Source of the DNA: a virus
IMG/VR virus record: IMGVR_UViG_3300046806_000356
Location: 32,001 to 96,000 of that record
Strand: one strand, 5' to 3'
DNA: 64,000 nt
The stretch's first letter is position 1. Each line of letters starts with the position of its first letter. The notes under the pieces are model-generated. The model did no database searches. It had not been told where the DNA came from and was given only the letters and a program-made list of their open reading frames with translations. Of the stretch, positions 7,668-37,823 are shown piece after piece. Position numbers and translations under genes: made by a program.

Positions 7668-8639
7668 ATGAAATTTGAAAAGATTAACGTCCCTTGTGGC
7701 GTACCCAATTTGGATTGGTTCAAGGATCTTGAACTTCCTAAGTTCCGCACTGCAAATGTGATTGGACTTGAAATCCGAGAGTGCTCCTCCATTCTTTACA
7801 CTAATGATAAGGGACAGGAAATCAACGTTGCTCGATCAACTGGAACAGACTATGTAAACCGGGAAAAGATCAAAAACAGTATTGAAGTGAATGGTATTCA
7901 GGTTGATGTTACTCCTCCTGTAATTCTTCCTGATGGAACTTCTGTTGATGGTTTTACCCGTGGTGGTGCTCTTAAAGTTCTAGAGCAAGAGAAATGGGTT
8001 TATCTTGTTGTTGATCTGAAGGATGGGTTTTCTATCGAAGATCTGAAAGATGAACTTGGATTGGGATGCAATAACCATTCTCCCTCAAAACCTGCTACTG
8101 AAGATGATTTTGAAGTTCGTCTTCGGAATTGGATTGCACGTCAAGAAGATTCCCCTACAGTTCAAGAATGTATGAATTGGTGGAACTCTATTCCCCATTC
8201 TTTCAGTCAAAAGGTAGTGGAAAATCGTTGCAACAAAGTCGTAAACAACATTATGGCTTCTTCCAGTATGGTTTCCTTCAATAAGGAAGCAGCAGAAACT
8301 CTTGCAAAGAAGATCTTGAAGCAAAAACTTCCCGAAAATGCAGCAGTAATTGCAATCAACAACGGAAACACAACCTACCATAAACGGGCATTCTTCGAAG
8401 CTCTTGAATCTGTAGCAGAAGGTAAGGTTCCTGTTCCGGTTGGATTTTTGCAGAATGTTACTGCAGAAAAGGCAGATGATGAACGTAAGAAACTCACTAA
8501 GCAGATTGCAAAATTGAACAAAATGTTCCGTGTTGCTGCTGAGAAGTATAATACGGATCCTACCTTTGAACTTCTTTCAATTGAGGGATTTGTACCACAA
8601 GCTCTTGGTATCGAAGATCCCAGTGAATTGATTCGATAG
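7668..8639 (+). CDS. Hypothetical protein with ParB/Srx-like N-terminal motif
   Basis: IKNSIEVNG...PPVIL...VDGFTR..AL resembles the ParB/Srx DGxxR motif. Confidence 0.5.
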   Translation: MKFEKINVPCGVPNLDWFKDLELPKFRTANVIGLEIRECSSILYTNDKGQEINVARSTGTDYVNREKIKNSIEVNGIQVDVTPPVILPDGTSVDGFTRGGALKVLEQEKWVYLVVDLKDGFSIEDLKDELGLGCNNHSPSKPATEDDFEVRLRNWIARQEDSPTVQECMNWWNSIPHSFSQKVVENRCNKVVNNIMASSSMVSFNKEAAETLAKKILKQKLPENAAVIAINNGNTTYHKRAFFEALESVAEGKVPVPVGFLQNVTAEKADDERKKLTKQIAKLNKMFRVAAEKYNTDPTFELLSIEGFVPQALGIEDPSELIR

Positions 8640-8697
8640 GGACAGATTCTAAACTGGCACAAGGAGTCCCATAAAACCCCCCCTTGTGCCCTATAAT
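8638..8697 (+). promoter_or_regulatory. Palindrome-linked early promoter cassette 2
   Basis: AGGGACA-GATTCTAAAC-TGGCACA; GGCACAAGG/CCTTGTGCC stem; TATAAT at 8692. Confidence 0.8.
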
Positions 8698-8731
8698 TAC
8701 AATGTTCAACACTAACGGAGTTAGTTTAATT

Positions 8732-9289
8732 ATGACAATCGCAAATCTTATCGATCATCTGGAAACAGGTGTCAACTGGAATAAAATTTTTGGTGTAGTT
8801 CGTTCCACCTATGGTGATCCTGGATTCACCTCCAGAGCAGATAACTTCACAAAATCAACCACAATTGAAAAGGCTCTTGCTAAGTTTTCTGACTTAGAAC
8901 GAGTTGATCAAATTGGATATGATTTTGTATATGGTGGGTTGAAAGTAGAACTGAAGATGCGTCAGAATCTATTCTACAAACGCACACCAAATCAAACTCA
9001 GATGATTAAAATGAAGAACTTCCAAGGTAACAAGAAGACCTTGCAAGATTTTAAGAACGATCAGACATTTGATATTGCAATTGTTCTGTGTCTTACCACC
9101 TATCAATGCATTGTTATTGAAGATGATGTGGCACGTGATCGTTACTTTGCCGATGGTGACGGAGTTTTTGCCAAGTTTGATCTTGGTGATTATTACAAAT
9201 GTGACATTGGTGAAGTAACAGCAATCCTTCCCCCAACTCAACTTTCTGAGCAGATTCAGTTGGCAATCGACAATTACCTCAATTTTTAA
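8732..9289 (+). CDS. PD-(D/E)XK restriction-endonuclease-like protein
   Basis: Motif GYDF...KVELK; GGAG RBS before ATG 8732; resembles ORF 35629-36228. Confidence 0.55.
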   Translation: MTIANLIDHLETGVNWNKIFGVVRSTYGDPGFTSRADNFTKSTTIEKALAKFSDLERVDQIGYDFVYGGLKVELKMRQNLFYKRTPNQTQMIKMKNFQGNKKTLQDFKNDQTFDIAIVLCLTTYQCIVIEDDVARDRYFADGDGVFAKFDLGDYYKCDIGEVTAILPPTQLSEQIQLAIDNYLNF

Positions 9290-9326
9290 TCTTATAATAC
9301 AATCATAACCAAAAAGGTTTCCTCCC

Positions 9327-9467
9327 ATGAAATGCAAAGTCGAACTCTACGTTGCTGGTAAAGTGTTCTATGAGCACGTTGAAGCACGTGATTACCAGGA
9401 TGCCAAACGTACTGCACTGGCACGTAATCCATCTGCAAAGGTTATTAGTGTGAATGCCGCATTCTGA
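9327..9467 (+). CDS. Small cyanophage-type hypothetical protein (46 aa)
   Basis: MKCKVELYVAGKVFYEHVEARDYQDAKRTALARNPSAKVISVNAAF; stop overlaps the next start. Confidence 0.7.
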   Translation: MKCKVELYVAGKVFYEHVEARDYQDAKRTALARNPSAKVISVNAAF

Positions 9468-9709
9468 TGCATCTACCATTCATTCCTAACTACGGACTGC
9501 TGAACAATAAATCTTCTGATCCTGCCGGTTATGTGACCAAGGATGGAATGTGGGCTGCAGTCCCTTTTGGCAAGCAGTTTATGATCATTCACAACGGAGA
9601 ACAAGTTCATGTATCAGGAACTCTTGCAGTTGCCAAATCTTACATCAACAAACAACTCAAAGCATCTAAGATTAAACCTGGTACATCATCACTGGAGGAA
9701 TTCCTATAA
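9467..9709 (+). CDS. Hypothetical protein
   Basis: 80-aa ORF coupled to the upstream gene. Confidence 0.65.
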   Translation: MHLPFIPNYGLLNNKSSDPAGYVTKDGMWAAVPFGKQFMIIHNGEQVHVSGTLAVAKSYINKQLKASKIKPGTSSLEEFL

Positions 9710-9742
9710 ACTTGATTAAATAGTGCAATACGAGTTTGGTAA

Positions 9743-9973
9743 ATGACTGCATATTACTTTTGGTTTGGAATCTTTATCTTCGTCTTCTACATTGTAGCAA
9801 CGGATGATAGTGTGGCATATGCTGTCACTTTAGTATCTAAGATCGTAAGATTCCAATACGAAAAACGAAAGTGGTGGTTGCTTCATAATCCCGCAAATCC
9901 GATTGTGAAATGGTTGATGTGGAGAAATGCTTTACGAATTGCAAAGGAACTTGAAAAAGAATTCAAAAAGTGA
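9743..9973 (+). CDS. Hypothetical membrane protein
   Basis: N-terminal hydrophobic helix; TAAATA late-like box upstream. Confidence 0.65.
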   Translation: MTAYYFWFGIFIFVFYIVATDDSVAYAVTLVSKIVRFQYEKRKWWLLHNPANPIVKWLMWRNALRIAKELEKEFKK

Positions 9974-10881: not shown

Positions 10882-11171
10882 AGTTTGAATTCAACTTTGT
10901 AAAACCTGGAGTTTTTGACCTACCAGAAACCGACTGGTGGGATTTTGACCCAAACGACCACATTGAAATTCAACCACATTGGACTATGGCACACTTGGCA
11001 GTAGAAATGGAACTGTTCCCATCAGTCGGACAAGCACGGAAGAATGGGTGGGATGGACAAATACCAAGAGGATTTACAGAGAAGAAAGCAATCGGAAAAA
11101 TGAAAAAATCTATGTTTATTCACAATCCATCTGACGAATTTATTAACAATCCTGAATGGGGTAAAGACTAA
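10878..11171 (+). CDS. Small protein with S4-like RNA-binding motif
   Basis: LAVEMELFPSVGQARKNG resembles the S4/TyrRS C-terminal motif. Confidence 0.45.
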   Translation: MKFEFNFVKPGVFDLPETDWWDFDPNDHIEIQPHWTMAHLAVEMELFPSVGQARKNGWDGQIPRGFTEKKAIGKMKKSMFIHNPSDEFINNPEWGKD

Positions 11172-12016: not shown

Positions 12017-12342
12017 AAAGGCATTATGTTTATTGTTCGTATGAAGAAAATGGTAGGCAATATATTGGAAGTAGAACTTGTGATTATTTGATTGAAGAAG
12101 ATGCTGAATATTTTGGAAGTTATACTGATAAAACTTTTAATCCAACTGGAAAAGTAGTTCTTGCAACATTTCCAAATAGAAGAGAAGCAAATGCATACGA
12201 ACATTACTTGCACAAACTTTTTGAGGTAGATAAAAATCCACATTTCGCAAACAAAGTATGTTTTATTGATTTTAGTGGATATTATGCTTGTTTTTATAAT
12301 GAACATCAACTCAAATACACATTACAAAATTTGAAAAAATGA
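12013..12342 (+). CDS. GIY-YIG endonuclease (short, probably truncated homing endonuclease)
   Basis: HYVY...RQYIGSR...YFGS...REANAYE...FANK motifs of the GIY-YIG catalytic domain; no obvious DNA-binding repeats. Confidence 0.75.
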   Translation: MKRHYVYCSYEENGRQYIGSRTCDYLIEEDAEYFGSYTDKTFNPTGKVVLATFPNRREANAYEHYLHKLFEVDKNPHFANKVCFIDFSGYYACFYNEHQLKYTLQNLKK

Positions 12343-12396
12343 CTTACGATGAACTGGCACAAGACCCCACCAAAACCCCACCAGATGCCTTATAAT
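12338..12396 (+). promoter_or_regulatory. Palindrome-linked early promoter cassette 4
   Basis: AATGACT-TACGATGAAC-TGGCACA; TATAAT at 12391. Confidence 0.8.
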
Positions 12397-12421: not shown

Positions 12422-12628
12422 ATGACTGAATTTTCGCAAAAACGATTTGTTGATTTGGGGCAAACTCTTTATGTTGAATGGTTGAAAACTGTAATAAAAA
12501 TACCAGTATCTAATCTTCATAGTTTTACCGAAGAAAAACGACGGCAGATATTCAACGTAGGAGCACAGTATGCCTTTGAGGCAGCAGAAGAGTTTGCCGA
12601 AGTGTTTCGTAATCAAGATGACAATTGA
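12422..12628 (+). CDS. Hypothetical protein (single gene between cassettes 4 and 5)
   Basis: 68 aa; stop codon lies inside the next palindrome. Confidence 0.65.
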   Translation: MTEFSQKRFVDLGQTLYVEWLKTVIKIPVSNLHSFTEEKRRQIFNVGAQYAFEAAEEFAEVFRNQDDN

Positions 12629-12675
12629 CGAACTGGCACAAGGACTTCACAAAGTCCCACAGAATGCCCTATAAT
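12617..12675 (+). promoter_or_regulatory. Palindrome-linked early promoter cassette 5
   Basis: GATGACA-ATTGACGAAC-TGGCACA; TATAAT at 12670; near-identical to cassette 6. Confidence 0.85.
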
Positions 12676-13815: not shown

Positions 13816-15802
13816 ATTTAATCCACTTGAATGGCAGAAAATCTGGGAACAACTCAGTGAAGAAGGTCCTTATGGAACTGGACCTGTAAATCTGTATCAT
13901 CTCACAAGTATCTTGGAGGACTTGTATGTGGAAAATCAAGAACTCAAAAGCAGAGTAGAAACTCTGGAAAAGGATATGGAATTTAGAAAAAGATATGAAC
14001 TTTTATGAGCAAGAACAAAATGACTAACAAACTAAAATTCACACAAGTATCACGAGTAATCTGTCCTAAAACTGGTATTCATTACTTGGATGCTATTGAT
14101 GAGTATGGAAATCATTGGACTGCTGAAATGCGAACTGATGTAGAACAATGGATTACATATTCTCAAATGTGGCATGAAGACCCCCAACAACCAGTAAAAA
14201 TAGAAAGATGACTGACCTTGATAACTACTTGAAAAAATGAAAATCCCGAATTACGCACTTGGATTAGTCACAGGATTTTGTTTTGCTGCTCTGTATTTTA
14301 TGGTATTTGTTATCCTCAAACAACCATCTATTTCACCAGAACCACCTATTTCAACAAATGCTGAAAAGCACAGAAACCTTGAAGTGGTGGATAGTTATTC
14401 TTATGAGAATAGAACTTGTTCTGTGATTAGATACACAACTCCTTCAACTAATTGGGTATATTTCCTTGATTGTAAAGAGGTGAAGAAATGAAAGTTTATG
14501 ATTACCGAATTGTAGAAGACCTCAATTTAAAAACTTTGAAACCTCATTTTTTTATTCAATATTATCATCTTACTGAAGAAAAATATTATATGTACTCAAA
14601 TGATACATTTCAAACACTTCAAGAAGCACAAGAAGCAATACGACTGATTAGAAAATACAACGAACCTGTGTATCATTATGTTGAGGACTGAAAAATGATT
14701 GAAATGAGAATTGTTGAAATTGGTGATGGTTGCCGAAGGAAGACCCACGACCTTCATATGCTACGATGCAATGGGATAAATGTGTTAGGATGATGAGGGA
14801 GAAACTGGAATGACTGAAAATGTACAAAACTACTTTTCTGTTCTTATGGAGTCTTTATATGCTAGAATAAAAGGAAATGGGGAGGAAGAAGATTCATTAT
14901 TGGATTATCTAGATAAAATTTGGAATAACTTTACCCCAGAAGAAATTGAGATTATAAACAAAATTATTAAGGAATTTAAAAATGATTGAAATTAGAGTTG
15001 TTGAGGAGGTGAAAGAATGACTACTGAACGAGACCTTAAATACGAACTTTGTTATAGCAACTATATTGATATGGAGAATGGTGATGATACGGAATCAATT
15101 GACTATCGTTCATTGATACATATTCTTACAGAACTTATGAGTAGGATTGAGAAACTGGAGGCAAAATGACAATCACAAAACTCCAAATAGGTTCTAAATG
15201 GAAACATAAGACTTCTAATGATGTTTATGTTGTAATGGAACAATATTCTCATAGAGTTGTTCTAAAACACGAACTTACTGGAACTATTATCAAATCAACC
15301 ATAGGGCATCTAAATCCTGATGGTTTTGCTGAATATCAAAGGATAGAAGAATAATGAAACTTTTTGATTATAAAACCAGAGACGACTACGGAAAAGATTT
15401 TTATTTCACATTTCTCAAAGGACAAAAATACTCACTCATTCAAGTATCATTCAGTATTTGTGAGTATCCAGGATTTCCTTATTTTCAAATCACTATGGGA
15501 ATGGGAAAGCTCTTTGGGTTCTTTACTTATGCTTGGAAATTTGGATTTGATATTGATATATTTGGTAGGACTTGGTGGTTGTGATTGAAAATCCAGACGA
15601 AATTGTATTGGAAGATGTGAAGATGTTTCACTTGGAAAGTATGAATGAACGAGCACTATGGATTGGTGTTTATACTCAAAATGGTAAGACATATCACTTG
15701 AATATCAGTGGTGATGGTGATAAACTAACTTATTGGTGGAGTGATGAGACACCTGACGAACTGGCACAAGGACTTCCCAAAGTCCCACCAGATGCCCTAT
15801 AA
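13808..15802 (+). other. Run of ~10 translationally coupled small hypothetical ORFs and gene remnants
   Basis: ORFs at 13808-14008, 14005-14211, 14237-14491, 14488-14691, 14810-14989, 15166-15354, 15354-15584 and 15581-15802, with ATGA/TAATG overlaps. Confidence 0.65.
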
Positions 15803-15803
15803 T
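15745..15803 (+). promoter_or_regulatory. Palindrome-linked early promoter cassette 6
   Basis: TGAGACA-CCTGACGAAC-TGGCACA; TATAAT at 15798; the upstream ORF reads through it and stops in the -10. Confidence 0.85.
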
Positions 15804-19131: not shown

Positions 19132-19524
19132 ATGATTTCTAAACCAGTATTAGCAACAGACAAACAGAAAACCACACTCAACTGGTGGGAGTATCATATC
19201 GGGCACTGCTGGATGACTGGATGGCAGACTATTGGTTCTGCGTTCCGTATCTGGGCAGACTTGATGGGTAGCAATTATGAAGTTTATGCACTACCAAGAA
19301 CAGCAGAAGACCCAGAAGCAGAATGTATTGAATGGTTCTGGGCAACTCTTGGAGAAGATGAAGTTTATCCCAAAGAGTTTCTTGAATATCTTATGCAAAT
19401 GGCAGATGATGTAATGACTGGGAAGGTGAAGACATATCCTATGGAAGATGTACTGGCAGAACTAAAAGACCTTATTGGTGATGTGGAGTTAGACGACGGA
19501 CCACTTGACGAACTGGCACAGTAA
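19132..19524 (+). CDS. Trp-rich hypothetical protein
   Basis: 130 aa; C-terminus runs through cassette 7 (GPLDELAQ). Confidence 0.7.
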   Translation: MISKPVLATDKQKTTLNWWEYHIGHCWMTGWQTIGSAFRIWADLMGSNYEVYALPRTAEDPEAECIEWFWATLGEDEVYPKEFLEYLMQMADDVMTGKVKTYPMEDVLAELKDLIGDVELDDGPLDELAQ

Positions 19525-25533: not shown

Positions 25534-26013
25534 ATGCAGTCTATCATTGAAATTAGTGGATATGGTTATCACAAACGGGTCTGTGAGAGTGTTACCACTT
25601 GGTTTTTGAATGAGTTCTTTCCACGGCATAAACTCTACGTTGAGATTGTGCATCGTGGTCTGAAACGTGATTGTGCCTATGGTTATTGTGACTATACCGG
25701 TGAGGCATATCGTCCTCGTGAGTTTCTGGTTGAATTGGATACTTACATGAATCAAGAGTTGTATATTAAGACACTTCTTCATGAACTGGTACACCTGCAA
25801 CAGTGGGTGACTGGAACTCTTCGTGCCAAACGTGGTAAAAGGTATTATAATTCCATTAATGTGGAGGATATTGAGTATTGGGATCAACCACATGAAATAG
25901 AGGCACGGGGACAGGAAGAAATACTATATCAACAGTATCTGAATGCAATGAACCCTGTGCCAGTACGACAAGTGGCACACTACTTCCCCAATCGACTGCT
26001 GAATGCAGTATAA
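25534..26013 (+). CDS. HExxH zinc metallopeptidase-like protein
   Basis: TLLHELVHLQQ...YWDQPHEIEA. Confidence 0.75.
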   Translation: MQSIIEISGYGYHKRVCESVTTWFLNEFFPRHKLYVEIVHRGLKRDCAYGYCDYTGEAYRPREFLVELDTYMNQELYIKTLLHELVHLQQWVTGTLRAKRGKRYYNSINVEDIEYWDQPHEIEARGQEEILYQQYLNAMNPVPVRQVAHYFPNRLLNAV

Positions 26014-26014
26014 T
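25956..26014 (+). promoter_or_regulatory. Palindrome-linked early promoter cassette 10
   Basis: TGTGCCA-GTACGACAAG-TGGCACA; TATAAT at 26009. Confidence 0.88.
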
Positions 26015-26037: not shown

Positions 26038-28743
26038 ATGAAACTCGAATGCTACACCACCGGTAACGTTGTCGATTACTATCCAGTCAAGTTTGTGGAT
26101 GGTACTATCTTGACCGAATGGTTTTTGAGGATTGTATCATTCGAGGGTACTGAAACTACATCAAAGAAGTTTCTTCGTAAGAAGGATGCGTTTGATGAGG
26201 TGAATGAACGTATTGCCCATGGCTATAAAGTAATCGACTTTAATCTCATTCCACAGATTGGTAATCCCATTGCAGGTGCTTGCTAAATGACTACAATTCA
26301 TCGTTTTAATAATCTCTTTGATGCCGTGAGGTTCTTGACTGATACATTTCAGATGACGAATCAAGAAGCAACTCATTTTGTCTGGGATCATCAATCTACG
26401 ATTGGAACTGATCGTGGAGTTTGGATTGACGTAAAATCACTGACTGGACTGGTAAAATGAACAACAACACAACTTGGTTTCAAATTTTTGTAGTTCTTGG
26501 TGCTGGTATTATTCTTCTTGTGCTTGCTGCTGGTCTTCTTTCTGTTACTAATCCAAGAATTGAGGCAAAATGTCAAGCAGCAGGAGGACAAGTTCTTGCT
26601 CGTCCTGGTAATGTTAGTTCCTGCCTTTATCCTATAAACAAATGACTGAAACACAAATGAATCTGAATGTCCATGAGGTGGGCATTCTCCTCTCTGCACT
26701 TCAAACGTTGAGTGTGAGTGATGAGAGAGTGATTGCCAGAGACTATGGAAGTGCTCCGGCATTGTATAATAAACTTTACAGTTTGTATGAGCAGATGGAT
26801 AGGTCAAAGGTTGAATTACGTTATGAGTTAACACCATCATTTTGAATCATGGATTCAAAGGCACGAATTCTTTCCAGCATTACAATTGTTTTTGCATTCT
26901 ACATCACTCTTTATCATGATACATCGGTGGGTGCAAGATTGTATATGATTGGAAATCTTCTGGCACTTCCTTATATGATTCGCAATAAGTGTTGGGATGT
27001 AGTTGCTTTACTTACATTTTTGATTATTATGGGGTTACCAAAAGTTATCGGAGCAACGACATGAATAACAAAGACCTTCAATCATTTATCACAGCATTTG
27101 ACGATTTTATGAAACACTTTGATGCCGAAGAACTTTACTACGAAGGTCGTATGGTTTATGAGAATCACCGTGCCGAAGCACGACGTATTCAAGAACAAGA
27201 GATTGAATCAAAGGCTGCAGAACTGGAAGTGACCTGTGACTATTATATGATGGAGTTTATGTAATGAATCTTTATATCATCAACCAAATTCTGCACGATT
27301 ACACTTCTGGTATGGTAGTCATTGCCGCCGAATCTAAAGAACAATGTCGTGAATTGTTTATTGAAAAGTTTGTTAACTATGGTGCCGAAGATTTCGATCA
27401 TGAATGTACCGAGTTCACTGTGATTGAAGGTGTGAATCATCCTGCTGGTATTGTTGACTATGTGTATGGTGGAGAATGAATCAAACAACTAAACTACTGT
27501 TCGCACTTATGCAAATAGAAGGTATCACTAAACTGATGAAAGACAATGAGTCTGAGCATTACCTTAACACCTTTCTAACACCTGTCAATGCAGAACTTAA
27601 CCGACAGTTGACAAATCTCACACAATCATCTAAAATTAAGGAGTAATTAAGCACAAGAAATGAAATCACTTTATATTGTTGACTACTGGGTGCCATTTCC
27701 ATCTTCCGAGTATGGTGGTCTAATCAATCTGATTGCCGAGAATGATACGGAAGCATTTGCCATTCTATCACAGGAAAACATCTTTGATGAAAGTTATGTT
27801 GATCGCATTATGCCCAATGTAGTCAGTGCTCAGAAGTTTGCTCTTGTTGATGAGTATGAGTCTGGCATTATTGATTCTTTCACAACGTAATTCAAATGGA
27901 AGCACTTTATCGTATTGAAGAGTTCACTACCACAGGATGGGAACTAATTGATGAGAAGGAGGTTCGATTGACAAAAGAAGTTTGCTCTCAACATATTCAA
28001 ACTTACATAAATGAGGGTGTGAACCCAAATCTTTTAAGAGTTGTTGTCGATGCTTGAATTTCCACACAAAGCACCAAAGGATTATAGTTATGAATTTGAG
28101 ACTTGGAACACCCGTACTGTTCGCATTATGCTCCGTTGTCATCGGCAATTTGATTATAACCTTGGTGCCAGTACCGCAACTGTATGGGGATTCTACAGTC
28201 CAAAGAAACGAATCTACTATGCACCAATCAATGCCAAGACAATTGGTAAGGAAGTGAATATAGATAATACAACTCCTTATACTGCAATGCCATTAAATAG
28301 AACGTCATTAGAAAAATGTTTTGTATGACCACATTCTATTCAGGATTGAATGTTAAGTACAGGGATCATATTGGTTTTGTTGATTTTATGTGTGAGAAGT
28401 ATATTACAATCTGTTTAGGACAGTTCGAACATAGATCAAAAGATGTCTGCATATTGATCTATCCATCACAGTGGAAAGAAGTACAACTCCTGAAAGAATC
28501 GGAGAAATGAAACATAAGACAGTGTGGAAATGGTTTGCAATGGCACTGGGAGAGAAAGCATCCAAGTGTGATAGAGAGTCTGATATTGTAGCAAGAATTC
28601 GTGCTGTTATATTTCTCACATACTTAATCACAAACATCTTTATTGTTGCAGGAGTAATTCGACATTGGGACGATAATCAGGAAATAAAACATGAGCAATC
28701 CATACAAGAAAATACTGTTTCCAGTTCACATTTTTCAATGTAA
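26038..28743 (+). other. Run of ~13 small hypothetical ORFs
   Basis: Includes 26038-26286, 26457-26645, 26642-26845, 26849-27064, 27061-27264, 27264-27479, 27660-27890, 28050-28328, 28325-28510 and 28507-28743; sigma70 promoter TTGACA(27608)-17-TAAAAT. Confidence 0.65.
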
Positions 28744-29341
28744 TATTAGGGAGAATCAAATCATTCAAGATGAGATTCTTCCAATAATAGAAGACATTCA
28801 TCAGAAAAAGAAATCACTGATTCCAGATGGATGGGAAACTACAAAATTACACACGTCTTTTAATATCGCCGAAATCAATCAGCAATTGTTTTCTGAGCAA
28901 ACTGCAGCGTGTCAGTATTATATGAAATACATTTCAAAGTTCTTTGATAAACCAAGTCAACTGGAGATTGTAGATATATGGTATAATTATTATGATGATG
29001 GAGAATATCAAGAGATACATGATCATTTGAACAGTAATATCTTTTTAAAGAAATCACATTTCTCTTGTATTCACTATTTGAAGTATGATTCTGATGTTCA
29101 TGTTCCCACAACATTTGTGGATCCAATCGAACAGATTCGATCACACTCTTTGGAGATGGAATCAAATCATTATGGTCCCAAGTATCATCCATATGTGCGT
29201 GAAGGTGATTTAATTATGTTTCCAAGTTATATGCAGCATTTCGTGAGAAAATCAGATCCGACTCCAGATTCACCAAGAATCACTGTCGCATTCAATTTAC
29301 ACGTATCACAATACGGAGAGTATTTTCAAGATGGAACTTAA
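28691..29341 (+). CDS. 2OG-Fe(II) oxygenase (putative)
   Basis: QEIHDH, FSCIHYL, EGDLIMFPSYMQHFV, RITVAFN. Confidence 0.82.
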   Translation: MSNPYKKILFPVHIFQCNIRENQIIQDEILPIIEDIHQKKKSLIPDGWETTKLHTSFNIAEINQQLFSEQTAACQYYMKYISKFFDKPSQLEIVDIWYNYYDDGEYQEIHDHLNSNIFLKKSHFSCIHYLKYDSDVHVPTTFVDPIEQIRSHSLEMESNHYGPKYHPYVREGDLIMFPSYMQHFVRKSDPTPDSPRITVAFNLHVSQYGEYFQDGT

Positions 29342-29813
29342 TTTTATTGATGACTTTCTGATACAGAAAGAACAAGAGATTGTTTTGAATTATTGTGAAT
29401 CCGCACCATATCATTATGGTGAACAGGATGATAAAGATTTGCCAGTCACTGGAATGATTCACAACATTCCTGAGACAGAATTTGTGTATAAACTGTTCAA
29501 GAAACATATTTCAGATAGAATTGAGATCGTTCGGAACATGAAACTGTATCGAATGTATGTCAATTGTTTTGCACCACAGGAAAATCCTTTCTTTCATATT
29601 GATGGCGAGGGTCTGACATTTTTGTATTATCCAAACATGCAATGGCACGTTCAGGAAGGTGGCGAGACTCAATTTTATATTGATGACAACATTTATGGCA
29701 TTATTCCCAAACCAAATCGATTAGTCGGATTTGATGGAACGATATTACATCGTGCCACATCATTTCGCAGTTTACATCGATTCACTGTGGCAATTAAGTA
29801 TTCTCCACAATAA
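29331..29813 (+). CDS. 2OG-Fe(II) oxygenase (prolyl-hydroxylase-like)
   Basis: FHID, GGETQF, PNRLVGFDG..LHRA, RFTVAIK. Confidence 0.85.
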   Translation: MELNFIDDFLIQKEQEIVLNYCESAPYHYGEQDDKDLPVTGMIHNIPETEFVYKLFKKHISDRIEIVRNMKLYRMYVNCFAPQENPFFHIDGEGLTFLYYPNMQWHVQEGGETQFYIDDNIYGIIPKPNRLVGFDGTILHRATSFRSLHRFTVAIKYSPQ

Positions 29814-29843
29814 ATACAAAAAATAGATACACAAGACTTTAGA

Positions 29844-31049
29844 ATGTCACTTCCAGCATATACTGCAACAACATATTTTAATACTGGTTCAATCAGTGCT
29901 CGTTCATTGCAGACGACATTTGGTGGAAATTCAAATAATGTCAAATTTTCTACTTATCGAAGAGATGCGGATCAAACAAACACAAGTCCGATTGTACCCG
30001 ATGCAACGGAGAATGATGATATTTCAACCGAAAATAATCTTAGTGCCTTAACTTTCCGTGGATCAGTCAAGGAGTTAAGTACATCTCAATCAGGTTCTGA
30101 TACAAATTTGAACATTGGTAGTACTTCAGTCTGGGGATTAAATCTCAACAAAAATATCATTAAGAATTTGAGTATTGGTGGTTTAATCACAGCCTCATCA
30201 AGCGCCACAACCGCGGCATCACTCAGTGGCAGTGCAATTAACTTAAGAATTGATATAAGTGGACAGATTTATGGTCAGTCTGGATCTGGAAATGGTGGTG
30301 GTGCTCTGTATTTGAATAATACGACGACTGTATCCAGTGGAAATGCAAGATTTATCAATGTGAATGTCAATTCAAATGGAAGAATCTGGGCTGCTGGTGG
30401 TGCAGGATCTGCAGGTGAAAGCGGAAACTCTGGTCCAGATCTTGGTTGTTATGCTGACACATACTATAATGTTAATTACTATTTTGGAGATAATCGTGAC
30501 TGGTATCAAAGTCTTGCCGATTCAGCTTGTGCAGCATATATTCCATTAAATTATAGTTCTGGTTATGCTCTTTATGGTAATCCAACCGATACAAGAACAC
30601 GTTGTCGTGGTGGTGGATATCGAAGTGGATCTACTTGGGATTCAAATAATCGATCAGGATATGCATGTGCAACAAATTGGGATCTAAGGTGTATAGCAAG
30701 AGGAAACTTTTTGGTTGCTGGTGGATCAGGTGGTGGAGGAGGAAATGCTGGAGTTGGTAGAGGATTTTCAAACAAAGGATCTTGGAGTTCAAATTATCCT
30801 CTCAATGATGCAGAGTATAATAGTGGTTCGACATCTGGTGGAGGACCTAATCCAGCAGGTGCAAATACGTGTGATGCTAATGGAACATCTTCATATGGTA
30901 ATGCAGGAACAGCAGGAAATCCTGGAGGTGACTGGGGTTCCGATGGTGCTGGTGGAACAAAGGGTGCCGCAATCTCCGGATTACTATATAAGATTGTTTC
31001 TGGTGATATCGGCAGTGGACATTTACAAAGAATCAAGGGATCGAAATAG
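29844..31049 (+). CDS. Glycine-rich virion / receptor-binding adhesin-like protein
   Basis: N-terminal GSIS..SL...FGG fibre-type motif; poly-Gly segments (GRIWAAGGAG, GGSGGGGG); AATAAATA late-like box near 29808. Confidence 0.6.
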   Translation: MSLPAYTATTYFNTGSISARSLQTTFGGNSNNVKFSTYRRDADQTNTSPIVPDATENDDISTENNLSALTFRGSVKELSTSQSGSDTNLNIGSTSVWGLNLNKNIIKNLSIGGLITASSSATTAASLSGSAINLRIDISGQIYGQSGSGNGGGALYLNNTTTVSSGNARFINVNVNSNGRIWAAGGAGSAGESGNSGPDLGCYADTYYNVNYYFGDNRDWYQSLADSACAAYIPLNYSSGYALYGNPTDTRTRCRGGGYRSGSTWDSNNRSGYACATNWDLRCIARGNFLVAGGSGGGGGNAGVGRGFSNKGSWSSNYPLNDAEYNSGSTSGGGPNPAGANTCDANGTSSYGNAGTAGNPGGDWGSDGAGGTKGAAISGLLYKIVSGDIGSGHLQRIKGSK

Positions 31050-31067
31050 TAAGGAGTTTATGCTATA

Positions 31068-31394
31068 ATGAAGTTGTCTCAAGTTGTTTTTCGTTTTATT
31101 GATGAATTCTTTATTCAAGAAGCACAGGGCAAAGAGTTTCATGCCTCTCCCTCATGTCAGAAGGAAAGGTGGGAAATCTGCTCAGGTTGTGAACATTATG
31201 ATGAAGAGGAAAAAGGATGTAAGTATTGTCATTGCTATTTGCCCAATAAAATAGCAGATCCCTGGGGTGATTGTCCATTGGATAAATGGATCTCAAATTC
31301 AGAACAATGGCACGAAGAGCACTATAAATTTATTAAAGAGAAGTTAATCTCAAAGTATCCAGAATTAGAAGAGTATTTGAATGGAAAGGATTGA
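31068..31394 (+). CDS. Cys-rich small protein (CxxC...CxxCxC...CP..KW; DUF6171-like)
   Basis: ERWEICSGC...GCKYCHC...DCPLDKW. Confidence 0.7.
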   Translation: MKLSQVVFRFIDEFFIQEAQGKEFHASPSCQKERWEICSGCEHYDEEEKGCKYCHCYLPNKIADPWGDCPLDKWISNSEQWHEEHYKFIKEKLISKYPELEEYLNGKD

Positions 31395-31974
31395 ACTCAA
31401 AGGAACATATGAAGATTTCATAGGATCATACTCCTGCATTGCTGATTCAGATTTTTGTAATGAAATCATTCATACATTTGATTATTATCAGAGTATTGAT
31501 TCTGTATATTGTGAGGATCAACAGTTTGATAATTCTAATGCAGGAAGATTCGACTGGGCACTTGATTTAATCAATATGCAACAGTCAATGAAAGGACAAT
31601 CATCTCAACAATTGAATGAGATTCTTAAGTCATGTTTAGAAGAGTATACACAAGTCTTCGGACATATGAAACAGGTGCCTTTATATTCATTGTCACAGAA
31701 GGTACAGAAGACTCCTGCTGGTGGTGGTTATCATGTTTGGCATGATGAGAATAGTGGACTTGATCACTGTTCAAGAGCATTGGTTTGGATGTTATATTTG
31801 AATGATGATTATAAAGGAGGAGAGACTGAGTTCTTGTATTATAAGAAACGTATTCAACCAGAGAAGGCAAAGTTATTGATTTGGCCTGCTGGTATGACTC
31901 ATGCTCATCGTGGAGGATTAGTTTTGGAAGGAACTAAGTATATTGTAACAGGTTGGTTTTATTTGGGAAGATGA
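31381..31974 (+). CDS. 2OG-Fe(II) oxygenase
   Basis: YHVWHDE, YLND..GGETEF, THAHRG, KYIVTGW. Confidence 0.88.
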   Translation: MERIELKGTYEDFIGSYSCIADSDFCNEIIHTFDYYQSIDSVYCEDQQFDNSNAGRFDWALDLINMQQSMKGQSSQQLNEILKSCLEEYTQVFGHMKQVPLYSLSQKVQKTPAGGGYHVWHDENSGLDHCSRALVWMLYLNDDYKGGETEFLYYKKRIQPEKAKLLIWPAGMTHAHRGGLVLEGTKYIVTGWFYLGR

Positions 31975-32234
31975 CACAAAATCAAGAAGAGTTTCCATCA
32001 TTATCGGAACAAGGTAAAAATTTAGCAAAGTTCACCGTCGAAGTTGTAAAGAATGTACTCATAACTTCAGACCCACAAATCTATGCTTCTCATCAATTAC
32101 AAAAGGAAAGACTTGATACTTGTAAGACGTGTGAGTATTATAGTGTAAGGCAGGAACGTTGTAAGCATTGTGGTTGTTGGTTACAGCATAAGGTTAAATT
32201 TGAGGCTGCCTATTGTCCGATTCAAAAATGGTAG
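31971..32234 (+). CDS. Cys-rich small protein, paralogue of 31068-31394
   Basis: ERLDTCKTC...RCKHCGC...YCPIQKW. Confidence 0.72.
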   Translation: MTQNQEEFPSLSEQGKNLAKFTVEVVKNVLITSDPQIYASHQLQKERLDTCKTCEYYSVRQERCKHCGCWLQHKVKFEAAYCPIQKW

Positions 32235-32303
32235 CCAATTATACCAAAATAGGTTAAATTTAATTAAAAAACATAATAAAAAACTATTATGTATTGTTAA
32301 TAA

Positions 32304-32335
32304 CATTCTCAATAACTACTTACTTATTGAGAATG
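32304..32335. repeat. Perfect 12-bp inverted repeat (hairpin)
   Basis: CATTCTCAATAA-ctacttac-TTATTGAGAATG. Confidence 0.9.
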
Positions 32336-32811: not shown

Positions 32812-32961
32812 ATGGTCACACAGAAACGCCTACTTACTGTTACATTAGACATCATGTGTTATGATGATCTAGATGTAGAACATATGGACTGGAAAGAGTT
32901 ATTAGAACTCGAAGGTACTGAGGAAGTCTATTGTAGCATCAAAGAGTATGATCCGTTCTAG
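32812..32961 (+). CDS. Small acidic hypothetical protein (49 aa)
   Basis: MVTQKRLLTVTLDIMCYDDLDVEHMDWKELLELEG...; own promoter and AGGGG RBS. Confidence 0.65.
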   Translation: MVTQKRLLTVTLDIMCYDDLDVEHMDWKELLELEGTEEVYCSIKEYDPF

Positions 32962-33043
32962 CCTTGTGCCAGTTTGAAGATTGGATCTCATTCTCAATAG
33001 TACAAGACTTATTGATTCTCAATAGTAGAATCTTATTGAGAAT

Positions 33044-33103
33044 GAGGACAGTCGAGAGACTGGCACAGTAGAGGTTGCATAGTGTGCGGCCTCGTGATAT
33101 TCT
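33044..33103 (+). promoter_or_regulatory. Palindrome-linked early promoter cassette 11
   Basis: GAGGACA-GTCGAGAGAC-TGGCACA; TTGCAT(33075)-17-TATTCT(33098). Confidence 0.75.
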
Positions 33104-33154: not shown

Positions 33155-33403
33155 ATGAAACTCTTTGCCTCTAAGTTCTACCAAACTCTGGTGCTGAATG
33201 TTGCCACGATTGCTGCAATTGTCGTGGGTTTGTATCAGTTTGCAGTTCGTGCCTACGATGAGAATCAAGGACCAGAAAAGACTCGCAAGGTGATTCAAAC
33301 CGTGCTGCAGTTCGTTAATGCAATTGAGTCACAATTGCAGGCAGTTGTTGATATCGATGTGCCAGTCGTGAAAGTGGCACATAAAACTACCAAACGTCGT
33401 TAA
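33155..33403 (+). CDS. Hypothetical membrane protein
   Basis: Hydrophobic segment; C-terminus reads through cassette 12. Confidence 0.65.
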   Translation: MKLFASKFYQTLVLNVATIAAIVVGLYQFAVRAYDENQGPEKTRKVIQTVLQFVNAIESQLQAVVDIDVPVVKVAHKTTKRR

Positions 33404-33416
33404 GATCTGATATATT
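33358..33416 (+). promoter_or_regulatory. Palindrome-linked early promoter cassette 12
   Basis: TGTGCCA-GTCGTGAAAG-TGGCACA; TGaTATATT with -10 at 33411. Confidence 0.82.
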
Positions 33417-33442: not shown

Positions 33443-33655
33443 ATGAAGATTATCTACACCCGACAGAATGTCGATGGCAGTTATGATCAGTGTGGAATGA
33501 ACAATCAGCGTTTGACTAGTCACTACAAGACAACTTCGGGGTTTCTTCGTTATGGTATCCCGAGCAACTTCTATGGTAACACTTTGAAGTTGGAAGTGTG
33601 GTATGGTGATAACATCTACCGCAACCCTGATAAAGTGATGTATGTGACAGTCTGA
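33443..33655 (+). CDS. Hypothetical protein
   Basis: 70 aa; single gene between cassettes 12 and 13. Confidence 0.7.
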   Translation: MKIIYTRQNVDGSYDQCGMNNQRLTSHYKTTSGFLRYGIPSNFYGNTLKLEVWYGDNIYRNPDKVMYVTV

Positions 33656-33702
33656 CTAGTGGCACAAGGGGGGTTGCGGAATCCCCCAATCCGTTCTACA
33701 TT
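33643..33702 (+). promoter_or_regulatory. Palindrome-linked early promoter cassette 13
   Basis: TGTGACA-GTCTGACTAG-TGGCACA; TTGCGG-17-TACATT; about 45 bp nearly identical to cassette 14. Confidence 0.82.
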
Positions 33703-34171: not shown

Positions 34172-34231
34172 TGTGCCGGTTCAGATACTGGCACAAGACC
34201 CCTTGCAAAATCCCCCGATCCGTTCTACATT
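34172..34231 (+). promoter_or_regulatory. Palindrome-linked early promoter cassette 14
   Basis: TGTGCCG-GTTCAGATAC-TGGCACA; TTGCAA-17-TACATT. Confidence 0.85.
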
Positions 34232-34862: not shown

Positions 34863-34878
34863 ACCTCCAATGACATAA

Positions 34879-34938
34879 TGTGCCACTTCAGATACTGGCA
34901 CACTGACCCCCTGAGACCGTCCCTTGACCCTGTAGGAT
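34879..34938 (+). promoter_or_regulatory. Palindrome-linked early promoter cassette 15
   Basis: TGTGCCA-CTTCAGATAC-TGGCACA; TAGGAT at 34933; leader shared with cassette 19. Confidence 0.82.
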
Positions 34939-35142: not shown

Positions 35143-35149
35143 ACCTCCA

Positions 35150-35323: not shown

Positions 35324-35547
35324 TGACACTCAACAAAGAACAATTCTCCAAACTGGTTGAGAATTATGCCAGTCACATTATCGAAGGATTATCTAATGAT
35401 TCCCTTGAATTGATGGTCTTCGATCTACTCACCCGTGAGTATGAGACCTATACTGAAGAGCAGATTGTTGGTGAGATCGAAGAACTTTATGGTGAGGAAG
35501 TTGCTGCCGATTTGTTAGAATCAGCAACTGATGTGCCAGTTGCCTAA
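35323..35547 (+). CDS. Acidic hypothetical protein
   Basis: 74 aa; ends inside cassette 16. Confidence 0.7.
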   Translation: MTLNKEQFSKLVENYASHIIEGLSNDSLELMVFDLLTREYETYTEEQIVGEIEELYGEEVAADLLESATDVPVA

Positions 35548-35590
35548 GTGTCCACTACGGGTTGACTTTCCCCCCAACCCGTGCCATACT
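35532..35590 (+). promoter_or_regulatory. Palindrome-linked early promoter cassette 16
   Basis: TGTGCCA-GTTGCCTAAG-TGTCCAC; TTGACT(35562)-17-CATACT. Confidence 0.82.
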
Positions 35591-35628
35591 TAACAAGTAA
35601 ACAATCAATCCTTACGAGGAGATTACAA

Positions 35629-36228
35629 ATGACTAAAACTGAACAATTCATTCAAGCACTTCAATCAGTGCCCCAATCTGTATACAAAGATTTCACAGAT
35701 CGTGCCAAAGTTGTTGCACTCCAATACCCTACTTCTTTCGGTATTGATTGCTTTGCACGTGGTGAAGGTATCGAATACGGGTTTCTGCAAAGTGTAACAG
35801 ACTACATCGATTTGCAGGCAAACGATAAAGGTCAGGCAAACGATCCTGATTATCTTTTTGCCGGTAACATTCTGACTGATGCGAAGACACAATGTGGCGG
35901 ACTGAAACCACAACAATCTGGTAAGAAGTTGTTTTATACTAACCAGTGGGATATTCAGAAGAAGGCACAAGGTGCATCTGAGTTTAAGTCCAAGGCAGAT
36001 TCTTACGTGTTGATTGATCCTCACTATGCACGGATTGCCGTGATTGATAGTGCAGTATTCTACACCAAGAAGTTCACTCAAGGATCGGCACGTATTAGTT
36101 TCTCCGTGAAACCTGAAGAAGTGACTATGATTTATGATGGTGCAGATTCTGTGCTTGATATTAAAGTGGCACACAATTCCAGGGATATCTATCGGGCAAT
36201 CTGGGAGAATGCAGCAACTCACGTTTAA
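35629..36228 (+). CDS. PD-(D/E)XK restriction-endonuclease-like protein
   Basis: NDPDY...TDAKTQ motif; GAGGAG RBS; resembles ORF 8732-9289. Confidence 0.55.
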   Translation: MTKTEQFIQALQSVPQSVYKDFTDRAKVVALQYPTSFGIDCFARGEGIEYGFLQSVTDYIDLQANDKGQANDPDYLFAGNILTDAKTQCGGLKPQQSGKKLFYTNQWDIQKKAQGASEFKSKADSYVLIDPHYARIAVIDSAVFYTKKFTQGSARISFSVKPEEVTMIYDGADSVLDIKVAHNSRDIYRAIWENAATHV

Positions 36229-36230
36229 GA

Positions 36231-36289
36231 TGTGACAGTCGGGGAACCGTCCACTGGTTCCCCCATTCCCCCCGATTCCGTGCCATACT
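36231..36289 (+). promoter_or_regulatory. Palindrome-linked early promoter cassette 17
   Basis: TGTGACA-GTCGGGGAAC-CGTCCAC; CATACT at 36284, 6 bp before ATG 36296 (leaderless-like). Confidence 0.78.
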
Positions 36290-36295
36290 AACAGC

Positions 36296-37189
36296 ATGAA
36301 AAACACACACCTACAACACCCCGAAGATTCTATCCTGACAGGTGATCTGTCAGTGTTAGACTGGTTCGTGAATCCCGGTCATCTCAGTGTTAAGATTGAT
36401 GGTGCCCCTGCTATTGTCTGGGGCACGAATCCTGCAACGGGTAAGTTCTTCGTGGGCACCAAAAGTGTCTTTAACAAAGTTAAAATCAAAATCAACGAAT
36501 CACATGAGGAAATTGATGCGAACCACACTGGCGAAGTTGCAAACATTCTGCACACTTGTTTTGATTGCCTACCTCATACAGACACCGTTTATCAGGGTGA
36601 CTTTATCGGGTTTGGTGGATCTGCTGAATACACCCCCAACACTATCACCTATCAGTTCCCTGAGGTAATTGATCAGAAAATTATCATCGCACCTCACACT
36701 TGCTATTATGCTGAGACGGACCTACGTGATGCTGTAGCAATGCCTGATCGTTCGATCTGGACTGATACTGAGACCGTCAAGTTTGTGCAACCTACAGCAT
36801 CAATCTTCGCAGGTGCTGAATACTTTGCCGACCTTAAAGATGTCTGCAAGTTTGCTAAGGTGATGGCACTGGGAGTTGAGTTTGTAACTCCTAAAGTTTC
36901 GGCACAAATTCAACAGCAACTGAATGCCTGTATTCGTGAAGGTCGCGAAGTGAATCCTGATGACTTTGAGAATCCCAACCTGATCAGTTTCTGGAAGTTG
37001 GTGAAGTCTATCAAAGAGGATGCAGTCTATCTCTGCCGCAATGATGGTCCTGCTGCTTACATCAATTACAACCGAATTGATGCCGAAGGTTATGTGATGA
37101 CCAATGAGTTCGGTATGTTTAAGTTGGTCAATCGTGAGGTCTTTAGTTATGCTAACTTTAACTACTCCCGGTTCCAGTGTGCCAGTTGA
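36296..37189 (+). CDS. ATP-dependent ligase-like nucleotidyltransferase (DUF6267-like)
   Basis: KNTHLQHPED; motif I SVKIDG, QGDF, EGYV, FKLV. Confidence 0.65.
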   Translation: MKNTHLQHPEDSILTGDLSVLDWFVNPGHLSVKIDGAPAIVWGTNPATGKFFVGTKSVFNKVKIKINESHEEIDANHTGEVANILHTCFDCLPHTDTVYQGDFIGFGGSAEYTPNTITYQFPEVIDQKIIIAPHTCYYAETDLRDAVAMPDRSIWTDTETVKFVQPTASIFAGAEYFADLKDVCKFAKVMALGVEFVTPKVSAQIQQQLNACIREGREVNPDDFENPNLISFWKLVKSIKEDAVYLCRNDGPAAYINYNRIDAEGYVMTNEFGMFKLVNREVFSYANFNYSRFQCAS

Positions 37190-37237
37190 CAAGGTGGCAC
37201 AAACCCCCTTGTGGTTCCCCCCAAAACCTGCAATACT
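37178..37237 (+). promoter_or_regulatory. Palindrome-linked early promoter cassette 18
   Basis: TGTGCCA-GTTGACAAGG-TGGCACA; TGcAATACT with -10 at 37232. Confidence 0.8.
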
Positions 37238-37264
37238 TAACAAGTCAACCAAACGGAGCACCTC

Positions 37265-37591
37265 ATGCGTAAGATCGAATCCCAAATGAATGCTGCCATC
37301 ACTGCCAAAAGTGATTGGAAGTCTGGCAACACTGAGGTTTCTAACATCGACGGTGTGAGTTTTGTGTTCCTTCACGGGAATAAGATTGCAGAAGTCGGTG
37401 ATAACTTTGTGAGGTTGTTTGATGGTGGTTGGCAATCCAATACCACCAAATCCCGTTTGAATGCTATTCTTCAGGGGCACGGATTGCCCGGTGAATGTGT
37501 ATTCCAAAAGCAGTGGACTTGGTTTGTTAATCTTAAGACTGGCAACGGTATTGCAACTGTTCCCTTCTTCTCCTCCATGCGTCTGGCATAA
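37265..37591 (+). CDS. Conserved phage hypothetical protein
   Basis: MRKIESQMNAAI...LHGNKIA...DGGWQSNTTKSRLNAIL. Confidence 0.75.
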   Translation: MRKIESQMNAAITAKSDWKSGNTEVSNIDGVSFVFLHGNKIAEVGDNFVRLFDGGWQSNTTKSRLNAILQGHGLPGECVFQKQWTWFVNLKTGNGIATVPFFSSMRLA

Positions 37592-37657
37592 CATCAAAGA
37601 GAATGGGATGCGCTCTAAAGACACCCTCACTCAAACCACACTATCTAACACTCACTC

Positions 37658-37777
37658 ATGACTTTTGAAATTGCATCTGCCCTGCTGAATCGTGCCACCA
37701 ATGGTAACGATCTCCTGCGTATTCTGGAATCTATCGCATCGGATGAGCAGGACCAGGGGCAGGAGATCCAATTCTAA
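37658..37777 (+). CDS. Small peptide (39 aa)
   Basis: MTFEIASALLNRATNGNDLLRILESIAS...; stop inside cassette 19. Confidence 0.55.
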   Translation: MTFEIASALLNRATNGNDLLRILESIASDEQDQGQEIQF

Positions 37778-37823
37778 GACTGGCACACCTGTCCCCTTTG
37801 GGGGGTTGGGTTGCCTGTAGGAT
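37764..37823 (+). promoter_or_regulatory. Palindrome-linked early promoter cassette 19
   Basis: AGATCCA-ATTCTAAGAC-TGGCACA; TAGGAT at 37818. Confidence 0.75.

Follow-up and report, generated by a model that had tools for sequence, protein, structure and literature searches.

Of the viruses that infect aquatic primary producers, T4-like cyanophages rank among the most abundant. We analysed a stretch of DNA that we read as part of such a phage: 64,000 nucleotides (nt), bases 32001-96000 of the single 119.6-kb contig of IMG/VR virus record IMGVR_UViG_3300046806_000356 (hereafter the window; coordinates are window positions). Between many of its small genes lies a short repeated element, composed of a dyad, a spacer, a -10-like box and a leader. 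The closest described system is the promoter-early stem-loop (PeSL) cassette of T4-like phages. In the accessible text of the papers that describe it, repeated PeSL cassettes recombine with one another, delete or insert the genes between them and leave a chimeric cassette behind (PMC2839356; PMC4122927); for phi1/RB49, promoter activity, terminator activity and mini-circles are reported there as shown experimentally (PMC2839356; PMC4122927). For the cyanophage S-PM2, what could be seen of Puxty et al. 2015 judges PeSLs too sparse to matter and exchange unlikely (PMC4503421). The accessible part of a 2010 paper describes a sigma-70-like upstream motif at the early genes of S-PM2 and Syn9, and calls early and middle control in cyanomyoviruses unclear because alt, mod and motA of T4 are absent (PMC2984593).

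As far as those partial sources allow the comparison, the element described here is a PeSL variant without a -35 box and with a conserved upstream TGGCACA, and the concept behind it is already published (Arbiol 2010; Comeau 2014). A first-pass annotation of the window had taken the element for an integron-like joint through which gene modules are captured or swapped; in essence, its inference is the PeSL model. We think it probable that the element is an early-type promoter cassette of T4-like cyanophages that sometimes serves as a crossover substrate for module exchange; this route accounts for a minority of gene turnover.

Anatomy and distribution of the element

The heptamer CTGGCAC is found 21 times in the window where 2.9 occurrences are expected, and the dyad GTGCC-N-TGGCAC 10 times where 0.06 are expected. 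Eighteen copies of the element were placed on the plus strand and one on the minus strand, together with one degenerate copy (near 9261), all within 8.6-38.2 kb; a scan of the whole 119.6-kb contig found no copies outside that interval. The aligned copies run, 5' to 3', through a 6-nt left arm, a 10-nt loop, the right arm TGGCAC followed by A, a G/C-rich spacer of about 30 nt, a -10 box and a leader of 20-30 nt that ends at the next start codon, with the -10 boxes 20-35 nt before start codons. The box reads TATAAT in 8 of 18 copies and TAnnnT or a close variant in the others, and the two forms are divided by region: TATAAT in copies at 8-26 kb, and TACATT, TAGGAT, TACTTA or TACAAT in copies at 33-38 kb. 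Among 535 unique copies from the window and its relatives, the right arm, the following A and the -10 box (columns 60-65, TATAAT) are near-invariant, whereas the left arm is half-conserved, keeping G..CA with A or C in equal shares at its fourth base. The dyad, with the consensus G(T/N)G(A/C)CA-N10-TGGCACA, has its centre about 42 nt 5' of the -10 box, counted from the first base of the box; a transcription start about 7 nt past the box would put the right half at about -48 to -42. The contrast between a conserved right and a variable left arm, noticed in the first pass, thus extends to the larger set of copies, whereas the "variable 6-bp cores" described alongside it are in fact 10 nt between 6-nt arms (8 nt between 7-nt arms).

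Some intervals bounded by elements hold only one or two genes. The pairs of near-identical promoter bodies that had been pointed out are real, with the likeness confined to the element: the genes flanking each pair are unrelated, giving by blastp no match at E<=10 or only matches at E>=0.08. More generally, sub-segments (dyad plus spacer, or -10 box plus leader) are shared in differing combinations among copies whose flanking genes are unrelated.

The contig itself has linear ends in its IMG/VR record and is 56% complete by CheckV. It encodes T4-type structural families (tail sheath, portal and major head protein) and a Kyanoviridae Gp96-family protein (Kyano_Gp96), the relatives of its proteins are those of Synechococcus and Prochlorococcus myoviruses, and near-identical DNA is present in freshwater metagenomes; we therefore take it to be a piece of the genome of a freshwater T4-like cyanophage (Kyanoviridae). 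The stretch at 8.6-38.9 kb is anchored on the left by a helicase gene (6292-7569) and a gene for a protein of 323 amino acids (aa; 7668-8639), both conserved, and on the right by a 252-aa gene (38885-39643) that is highly conserved: it has at least 599 relatives in IMG/VR, and identity to the best 80 of them is 85-94%. Between these anchors lie about 97 tightly packed small open reading frames (ORFs) on the plus strand, many with ATGA overlaps. This is a typical hyperplastic region, and megablast of 8-20 kb against cultured phages returned two short patches only.

Relatives carry the same element in abundance. An nhmmer profile built from 15 window copies, which match by construction, gave 558 matches in the window and 157 of 219 fetched loci. 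The pattern CTGGCACA-N23-25-TGCNNTATAAT matched at least 120 IMG/VR stretches, most of which share small genes with this region, and a looser regular expression recovered 486 copies in 1.06 Mb of 123 loci, 120 of them picked for the pattern, versus 54 in shuffled sequence. In cultured phages, TGGCACA-N26-32-TANNNT has forward/reverse counts of 15/2 in S-SRM01, 5/1 in S-SM2, 9/3 in S-PM2, 16/6 in P-SSM2 and 8/3 in S-CAM3, versus 0-1 matches to a reversed control pattern in the same five genomes; the matches cluster in variable early regions, mostly on one strand. The 20 cultured-phage copies inspected share the left arm (..GACA or GTGCCA), the loop CTTGAAGAAC, a spacer hairpin and the leader, and in some copies of P-SSM2 and S-SM2 a T-run follows the spacer hairpin. 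S-PM2 thus has nine forward matches, despite the judgement on PeSLs in that phage, and the six inspected (5.1-23 kb) all show the full element. Because the same motif and parts recur in five cultured genomes, the element is, judging from these matches, a feature of the whole Kyanoviridae family and not of one contig. Our literature search found no paper describing TGGCACA in cyanophages, although supplements and the S-PM2 and Syn9 genome papers lay outside its coverage, so that a prior description is possible; one cyanophage paper holds the string within a cobS primer.

Almost the same cassette, with loop CTTGAAGAAC and spacer hairpin GGAGACC..GGTCTCC, occurs at S-PM2 8550-8660 (L230) and S-SRM01 54620-54730 (L243), although the first phage is marine, the second freshwater, and the two belong to different genera. 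This likeness suggests either very strong constraint or transfer of the cassette across habitats.

Chimeric elements, joints and gene turnover

One line of evidence that elements take part in recombination comes from present-day populations. Contigs of four freshwater metagenomes, aligned to 19001-39000 at 90% likeness (uncovered stretches in the X8 contigs are not evidence of absence), contain at least 23 distinct joints relative to the window. Among the 23 listed, nine have both ends in elements, two are ambiguous, two touch an element at one end only, at the left edge of element 5 (19499 and 19502), and ten have none. The element-element joints are 23587->24959, 33068->33688, 33366->34219, 35555->36261, 37217->34226, 37217->33407, 38147->37831, 37775->38134 and 37842->38126. 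The first, in run X9, removes exactly a restriction-modification (R-M) pair; joint 35555->36261, in an X9 contig of depth 105, removes the single gene g90 and leaves one chimeric element. When the bridging letters were compared with the element positions skipped (two anchors having been corrected by hand from the printed sequence), all seven element-element joints with bridging letters given were in register within 2 nt, and six of the seven within 1 nt. This in-register property is a stronger argument than enrichment of joints at elements.

Close relatives show the same outcome. In comparisons with 23 loci, 39 insertion/deletion or replacement gaps were found (some of them the same event seen in several loci), of which 16 have a window element at one end or more and 6 at both ends. 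The polymorphic cassette gene g02 (8732..9289, plus strand; the position of the -10 box suggests the ATG at 8732 as its start) is absent from loci L204, L205, L206, L122 and L212, with both joints inside elements. In L204, L205 and L206 a single element remains, which combines the dyad of element 1 (8639..8697, plus strand; right arm TGGCACA at 8655, weak left arm GGGACA, -10 box TATAAT at 8692-8697) with a -10 box and leader equal to those of the degenerate plus-strand copy at 9245..9296 (TTGGCAAT...TATAAT). In all relatives that extend that far, element 1 bounds the variation on the left. Similarly, g14 (12422..12628, plus strand) is a single-gene cassette between element 2 (12339..12396, plus strand; right arm 12355) and element 3 (12618..12675, plus strand; right arm 12634), and in L121 a single chimeric element joins the element 2 spacer to the element 3 leader. 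A third single-gene cassette is g90 (35581..36228, plus strand), missing from L168 as well as from the X9 contig; L168 has a single element with the loop of element 14 (35533..35592) and the -10 box and leader of element 15 (36233..36291), both plus-strand copies whose right arms, at 35549 and 36249, are the variant GTCCAC. At element 16 (37179..37239, plus strand; right arm 37195), which is joined to elements 10 and 12 in X9 contigs, L178 carries a 0.9-kb insertion with an element on each side.

Over a wider range of relatives, junctions with elements are less often kept. We compared 99 translated ORFs with 123 IMG/VR loci and scored whether each neighbour was still a neighbour in the relative. 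Adjacency was kept in 10 of 226 observations at element junctions versus 203 of 977 elsewhere (Fisher p 1.3e-10), and the per-junction mean was 0.024 versus 0.205 (Mann-Whitney p 2e-4; 19 versus 60 junctions). The strict tblastn adjacency was redone with loose neighbour detection, lest missed weak homologues inflate the breaks, and the conclusion was unchanged. Where element junctions were broken, the homologue of the upstream gene was still followed by an element in 54 of 127 cases, and that of the downstream gene was still preceded by one in 47 of 89. Local-alignment end points were rejected as crossover markers: they cluster at the right arm and the start codon, and they cannot resolve crossovers because all copies share those parts.

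Several observations weigh against a large role for the element in recombination. At element-free junctions, 747 of 774 breaks have no element in the relative either, and 27 have one; in close relatives, 23 of the 39 gaps lack an element at both ends. Of the 123 loci, 120 were chosen for carrying the pattern and are not a random sample of relatives. The population joints come almost all from run X9 and from assembled contigs, with several sides shorter than 30 nt. In the 33-38 kb part, moreover, an element stands at 10 of 14 gene junctions, and element joints are therefore only weakly enriched over a gene-boundary null. A rival reading takes the element for a promoter with no recombination role, in a region where illegitimate recombination acts everywhere and selection keeps intact genes with one working promoter, which would make joints appear to lie at elements. 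Shuffling is indeed pervasive at element-free junctions, where 774 breaks stand against 203 conserved adjacencies; precise element-free losses exist, of g08 (10882..11160) within an operon and of a 3.6-kb block (28682..32332) with no element at either end; and since nearly every junction at 33-38 kb has an element, joints at gene boundaries there must meet one. What such a history explains poorly is that 7 of 7 element-element joints are in register within 2 nt, that the chimeras are of canonical length, with the left part of one copy and the right part of another, and that sub-segments are shared as a patchwork among copies. Nor do element-free gaps of 20 nt and above break more readily than tight, overlapping gene ends: the conserved share is 0.25 for the former and 0.19 for the latter. 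On balance we consider a promoter without any part in recombination unlikely.

A site-specific, integron-like system is a very improbable explanation. Such a system would have a dedicated recombinase act on the palindrome, its gene lying in the host or in the 44% of the phage genome that is missing here, in keeping with a dyad whose right half is near-invariant, with single-gene units bounded by elements and with the incompleteness of the contig. However, the first-pass annotation's remark that no recombinase lies in the window can be widened: PF00589, PF00239 and PF00154 gave no match in the whole 119.6-kb contig, at 56% completeness, whereas PF00589 was matched in all control genomes. This leaves no tyrosine or serine recombinase in 119.6 kb; for UvsX-type proteins the negative is uninformative because the replication half of the genome is missing. 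Tyrosine or serine recombinases are not known from T4-like phages, which we also count against such a system. Further, the crossovers are spread over the loop, the region just past the right arm, the spacer, the -10 box and the leader, and do not share one core. Every element has its own -10 box and leader, and the cassettes are therefore not promoterless, unlike integron cassettes. The integron comparison accordingly does not hold, while the accompanying suggestion, that homology-based exchange fits better than a site-specific recombinase, is supported by joints in register and crossovers scattered along the cassette.

The reading that we prefer, of a promoter cassette with an occasional recombination role, would work as follows. 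Within the hyperplastic early region, each cassette would head a transcription unit comprising between one and about 20 small genes. Being dispersed repeats of about 75 nt, the cassettes would sometimes allow general recombination, by the phage's or the host's own system, to cross over between two of them in register. Such a crossover would delete, insert or re-neighbour promoter-led modules and leave one chimeric cassette, as in the PeSL mechanism. Most turnover nevertheless occurs at ordinary gene boundaries inside operons, with the cassette route in the minority. The idea of a recombination joint, and the expectation that breakpoints in relatives would map to the element, therefore stand in part: chimeric elements, in-register joints and low adjacency speak for them, but the element is not the main route, as most breaks and gaps are element-free.

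Upstream gene ends, putative promoter signals and the dyad

The elements overlap the 3' ends of the genes before them. On the plus strand, upstream stop codons fall between -16 and +51 of the right arm in 15 of 18 copies, either inside the element or after read-through; the earlier count was at least 13 of 19. All the stops that had been listed are present: 12342 lies in the left arm, and 12628, 33655, 35547, 37189 and 37777 in the loop, and 8639 and 23589 abut the left arm. The stop at 37777 closes a short ORF (frame open from 37649, ATG near 37658) below the 40-aa limit of the ORF list. Read-through ORFs end at 15802, 19524, 25014, 26013 and 33403, of which those ending at 15802, 25014 and 26013 reach into or past the -10 box. 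Their quoted tails had been read correctly: ...PDELAQG...DAL-stop, ...LDELAQ-stop, VPVRQVAH..., VPVVKVAH... and CTTSRTGTQG....

The stronger claim, that the element overwrites the 3' end of the upstream gene, so that homologues would end before the tails, divides by gene. Homologues of the ORFs ending at 15802 and 19524 end before the element (e.g., ...DVELDD-stop), stop in the loop or read through in another frame (...ETGTEDVEDAS-stop); because of this, we regard these two tails as by-products of the element, and the overwriting claim holds for them. By contrast, homologues of the ORFs ending at 26013 and 33403 retain the same tail at 62-73% identity with the element embedded in it, and more distant homologues of the former keep its FPNRL motif without the dyad. 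At these two genes, element and protein end therefore form one conserved unit, a stable part of the gene's 3' end, and the overwriting claim fails. Homologues of the methyltransferase ORF ending at 25014 reach only about 27% identity and have different ends. Because genes are so tightly packed, the cassette's upstream half falls on the preceding ORF's 3' end; that ORF ends in the loop (TGA), ends in the -10 box (TAA) or has the element fixed within its C-terminus.

The promoter side of this reading has its own difficulties. A standard sigma-70 scan flagged only 2 of 18 copies for a -35 box (TTCACA and TTCCCA, 18-nt spacer), and the element therefore has no regular -35 box; promoter function is argued from the -10 box, its placement before start codons and the strand bias. 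Sigma-70-like sites at 8-27 kb do not exceed their number in shuffled sequence, spacer columns are low in information across the 535 copies, and RNA runs X19 and X20 contain only 0.06 of the sampled words of the region. Stem-loop formation is inconstant as well. In the 535-copy set no pair of arm positions covaries beyond the expectation from column make-up, half of the copies have a mid-stem A.G mismatch, pair 14-23 is anti-correlated, and 6-7 of 7 arm pairs form in only 212; the fold z is <= -2 in only 4 of the 18 window copies. Of those 18, about 7 fold into the dyad hairpin and about 10 into one in the spacer, and 1 has no structure.

Further candidates were rejected. Neither canonical -35 boxes nor intrinsic terminators are enriched, and they are not at elements. 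Covariation, whether in the dyad or between the G-run and C-run of the spacer, was discarded, as pairing equals the column make-up expectation. An NtcA promoter, whose site is centred near -41.5, does not fit either, the consensus in the accessible text of PMC3037559 being GTA-N8-TAC as against G(T/N)G(A/C)CA-N10-TGGCAC for the dyad.

The hairpin data bear on another reading, in which the dyad acts mainly in RNA: it would stabilise the 3' end of the upstream transcript, attenuate that transcript or mark it for processing, as the terminator half of a promoter-terminator unit like that of PeSLs. Perfect 6-7-bp stems occur in several copies, with minimum-free-energy hairpins at 25957, 33359, 34173, 34880 and 37179; one relative has the double change GTACCA...TGGTAC and another a G.U intermediate, such changes being rare; and the spacer hairpin with T-run of P-SSM2 and S-SM2 would suit a terminator. 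Against this, none of 16 terminator-like sites is at an element, no T-run follows the dyad (the right arm is followed by A and the G/C-rich spacer), and the pairing statistics just given show nothing beyond column expectation. The asymmetry, a near-invariant right arm beside a loose left one, is more in keeping with recognition of the right arm's sequence than with a hairpin that must form. An RNA role as the main function of the dyad seems to us doubtful.

A further and tentative proposal is that TGGCACA and its weak partner form the site of a factor that replaces the -35 contact and switches on early transcription across both marine and freshwater Kyanoviridae, making the three-part cassette a family-wide plug-and-play linker; this is possible, though we would not call it likely. 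Candidates for that factor are a host activator, a sigma-associated protein and a virion-borne protein. If the proposal is true, any gene landing behind a cassette would be expressed early and any two cassettes could recombine, which would account both for the control of early transcription in cyanomyoviruses and for the fluid gene pool of hyperplastic regions.

Individual copies, their surroundings and described systems

In the left part of the region, all on the plus strand, element 4 (15746..15803; right arm 15762), to which the body of element 3 is 89% identical, is read through by the upstream ORF to the TAA of the -10 box, while at element 5 (19498..19554; right arm 19514) the upstream ORF ends just past the right arm. 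Element 6 (23589..23646; right arm 23605) is the left border of the R-M module (23669..25014, plus strand), in which an MjaI-type endonuclease (23669-24196; PF09568, E 7.6e-49) stands beside an N6_N4 methyltransferase (24193-25014; PF01555, E 3.3e-45); these matches confirm the R-M pair named in the first pass. Element 7 (24947..25004; right arm 24963) is within the 3' tail of the methyltransferase ORF. Element 8 (25957..26014; right arm 25973) places a perfect 6-bp dyad in the conserved C-terminus (VPVxxVAxxFPNRLLxAV-stop) of a 165-aa ORF.

The right-hand cluster, also on the plus strand, begins with element 9 (33045..33103; right arm 33061) and element 10 (33359..33416; right arm 33375), the latter within the conserved tail DVPVVKVA(H/Q)KTTKRR-stop of a 97-aa ORF. 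Element 11 (33644..33702; right arm 33660) has a -10 box and leader identical, up to the start codon, to those of element 12 (34173..34231; right arm 34189), and those of element 13 (34880..34938; right arm 34896) are near-identical to those of element 17 (37765..37823; right arm 37781). Element 18 (38100..38143; right arm 38121), where L174 has an insertion, lacks a clear dyad and shows only a G/C hairpin and the -10 box TACAAT. C-runs in elements (37842-37852 and 38123-38129, in leader or spacer) differ in length between strains, with two letters missing at 37844 and C or CC inserted at 38123 in run X9.

The sole minus-strand copy (32930..32987; CTGGCACAAGG...TACAAT, right arm at 32966-32972) has two neighbours on its strand at 32425-32493: a terminator-like hairpin and a sigma-70 site that matches the consensus perfectly (TTGACA-18-TATAAT with TG). 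This part looks like a small divergently transcribed island in an otherwise one-strand region, and the plus-strand ORF calls at 32170-32382 and 32415-32789 may be wrong.

Other features of the window are recorded as observations in their own right. At 10878-11171, at 28682-32332 and at many ATGA junctions, genes or blocks have been gained or lost exactly at the overlapping stop and start, with no repeat in either genome; this mode makes up most of the shuffling. The part at 33000-38200, with one element per gene, has a G+C content of 42-46% versus 34-40% in the rest of the variable region, and holds the Kyanoviridae-conserved genes DUF6267, Kyano_Gp96 and DUF7249. Just 5' of the 252-aa gene, the interval 38430-38660 holds two G/C-rich hairpins and, after them, very A+T-rich sequence containing TATAAA-type motifs; it may mark where the early region ends and late-type transcription begins. 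The window also includes ORFs of 3737 and 2481 aa; a 50-nt unit is exactly duplicated in tandem at 55142-55241, across the end of the 3737-aa ORF (43989-55202), and in-frame tandem repeats of 165 nt and 66 nt lie at 3056-3384 and 4238-4567, within giant structural ORFs at the left of the window.

Among described systems, integrons offer the more distant comparison. Like attC/attI sites, the elements are short imperfect palindromes that bound single-gene units gained and lost. However, no IntI-type integrase was found in this 56%-complete contig, the units have their own promoters, and the crossovers are spread over about 75 nt of homology, with a conserved right arm in place of a folded bottom strand. 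Cultured Kyanoviridae are much nearer, with TGGCACA-N(about 29)-TATAAT, the left arm, loop, spacer hairpin and leader, and the same one-strand clustering in early or variable regions.

The differences from PeSLs, as the latter appear in the accessible text, are several. The cyanophage element has no regular -35 box 16-18 nt from the -10 box; it has instead TGGCACA about 30 nt upstream of that box and, another 10 nt upstream, the weak partner arm of the dyad. A stem-loop is not a constant feature of it, and it is often located within coding sequence, forming part of a conserved C-terminus in two gene families. Its hosts are cyanobacteria, and its promoter activity is a prediction from sequence. 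The likenesses are nonetheless extensive. PeSLs are described there as repeated promoter units of about 70-100 nt, often with stem-loops, in hyperplastic regions 5' of small ORFs of unknown function; the upstream stop codon falls inside the unit, which ends at the next gene's start codon; where close relatives differ by an indel, one genome has a unit on each side of it and the other a single chimeric unit; exchange is proposed to be homologous, with no dedicated recombinase; and degraded "half" copies lie near indels. The element of this window shares the -10 box with a short leader, the hyperplastic location and the chimeric indels (g02, g90, g14, L178 and the R-M module), and the spacer hairpin with T-run in P-SSM2 and S-SM2 is the promoter-terminator arrangement described for PeSLs. 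A family-wide promoter cassette with a defined upstream box would offer a concrete experimental target, and the population data indicate that promoter-led modules, an R-M pair among them, are gained and lost through cassettes in present-day lakes. PeSL-type shuffling, judged unlikely for S-PM2, would thus extend to cyanophages, as a minority route of gene turnover that leaves chimeric cassettes behind.

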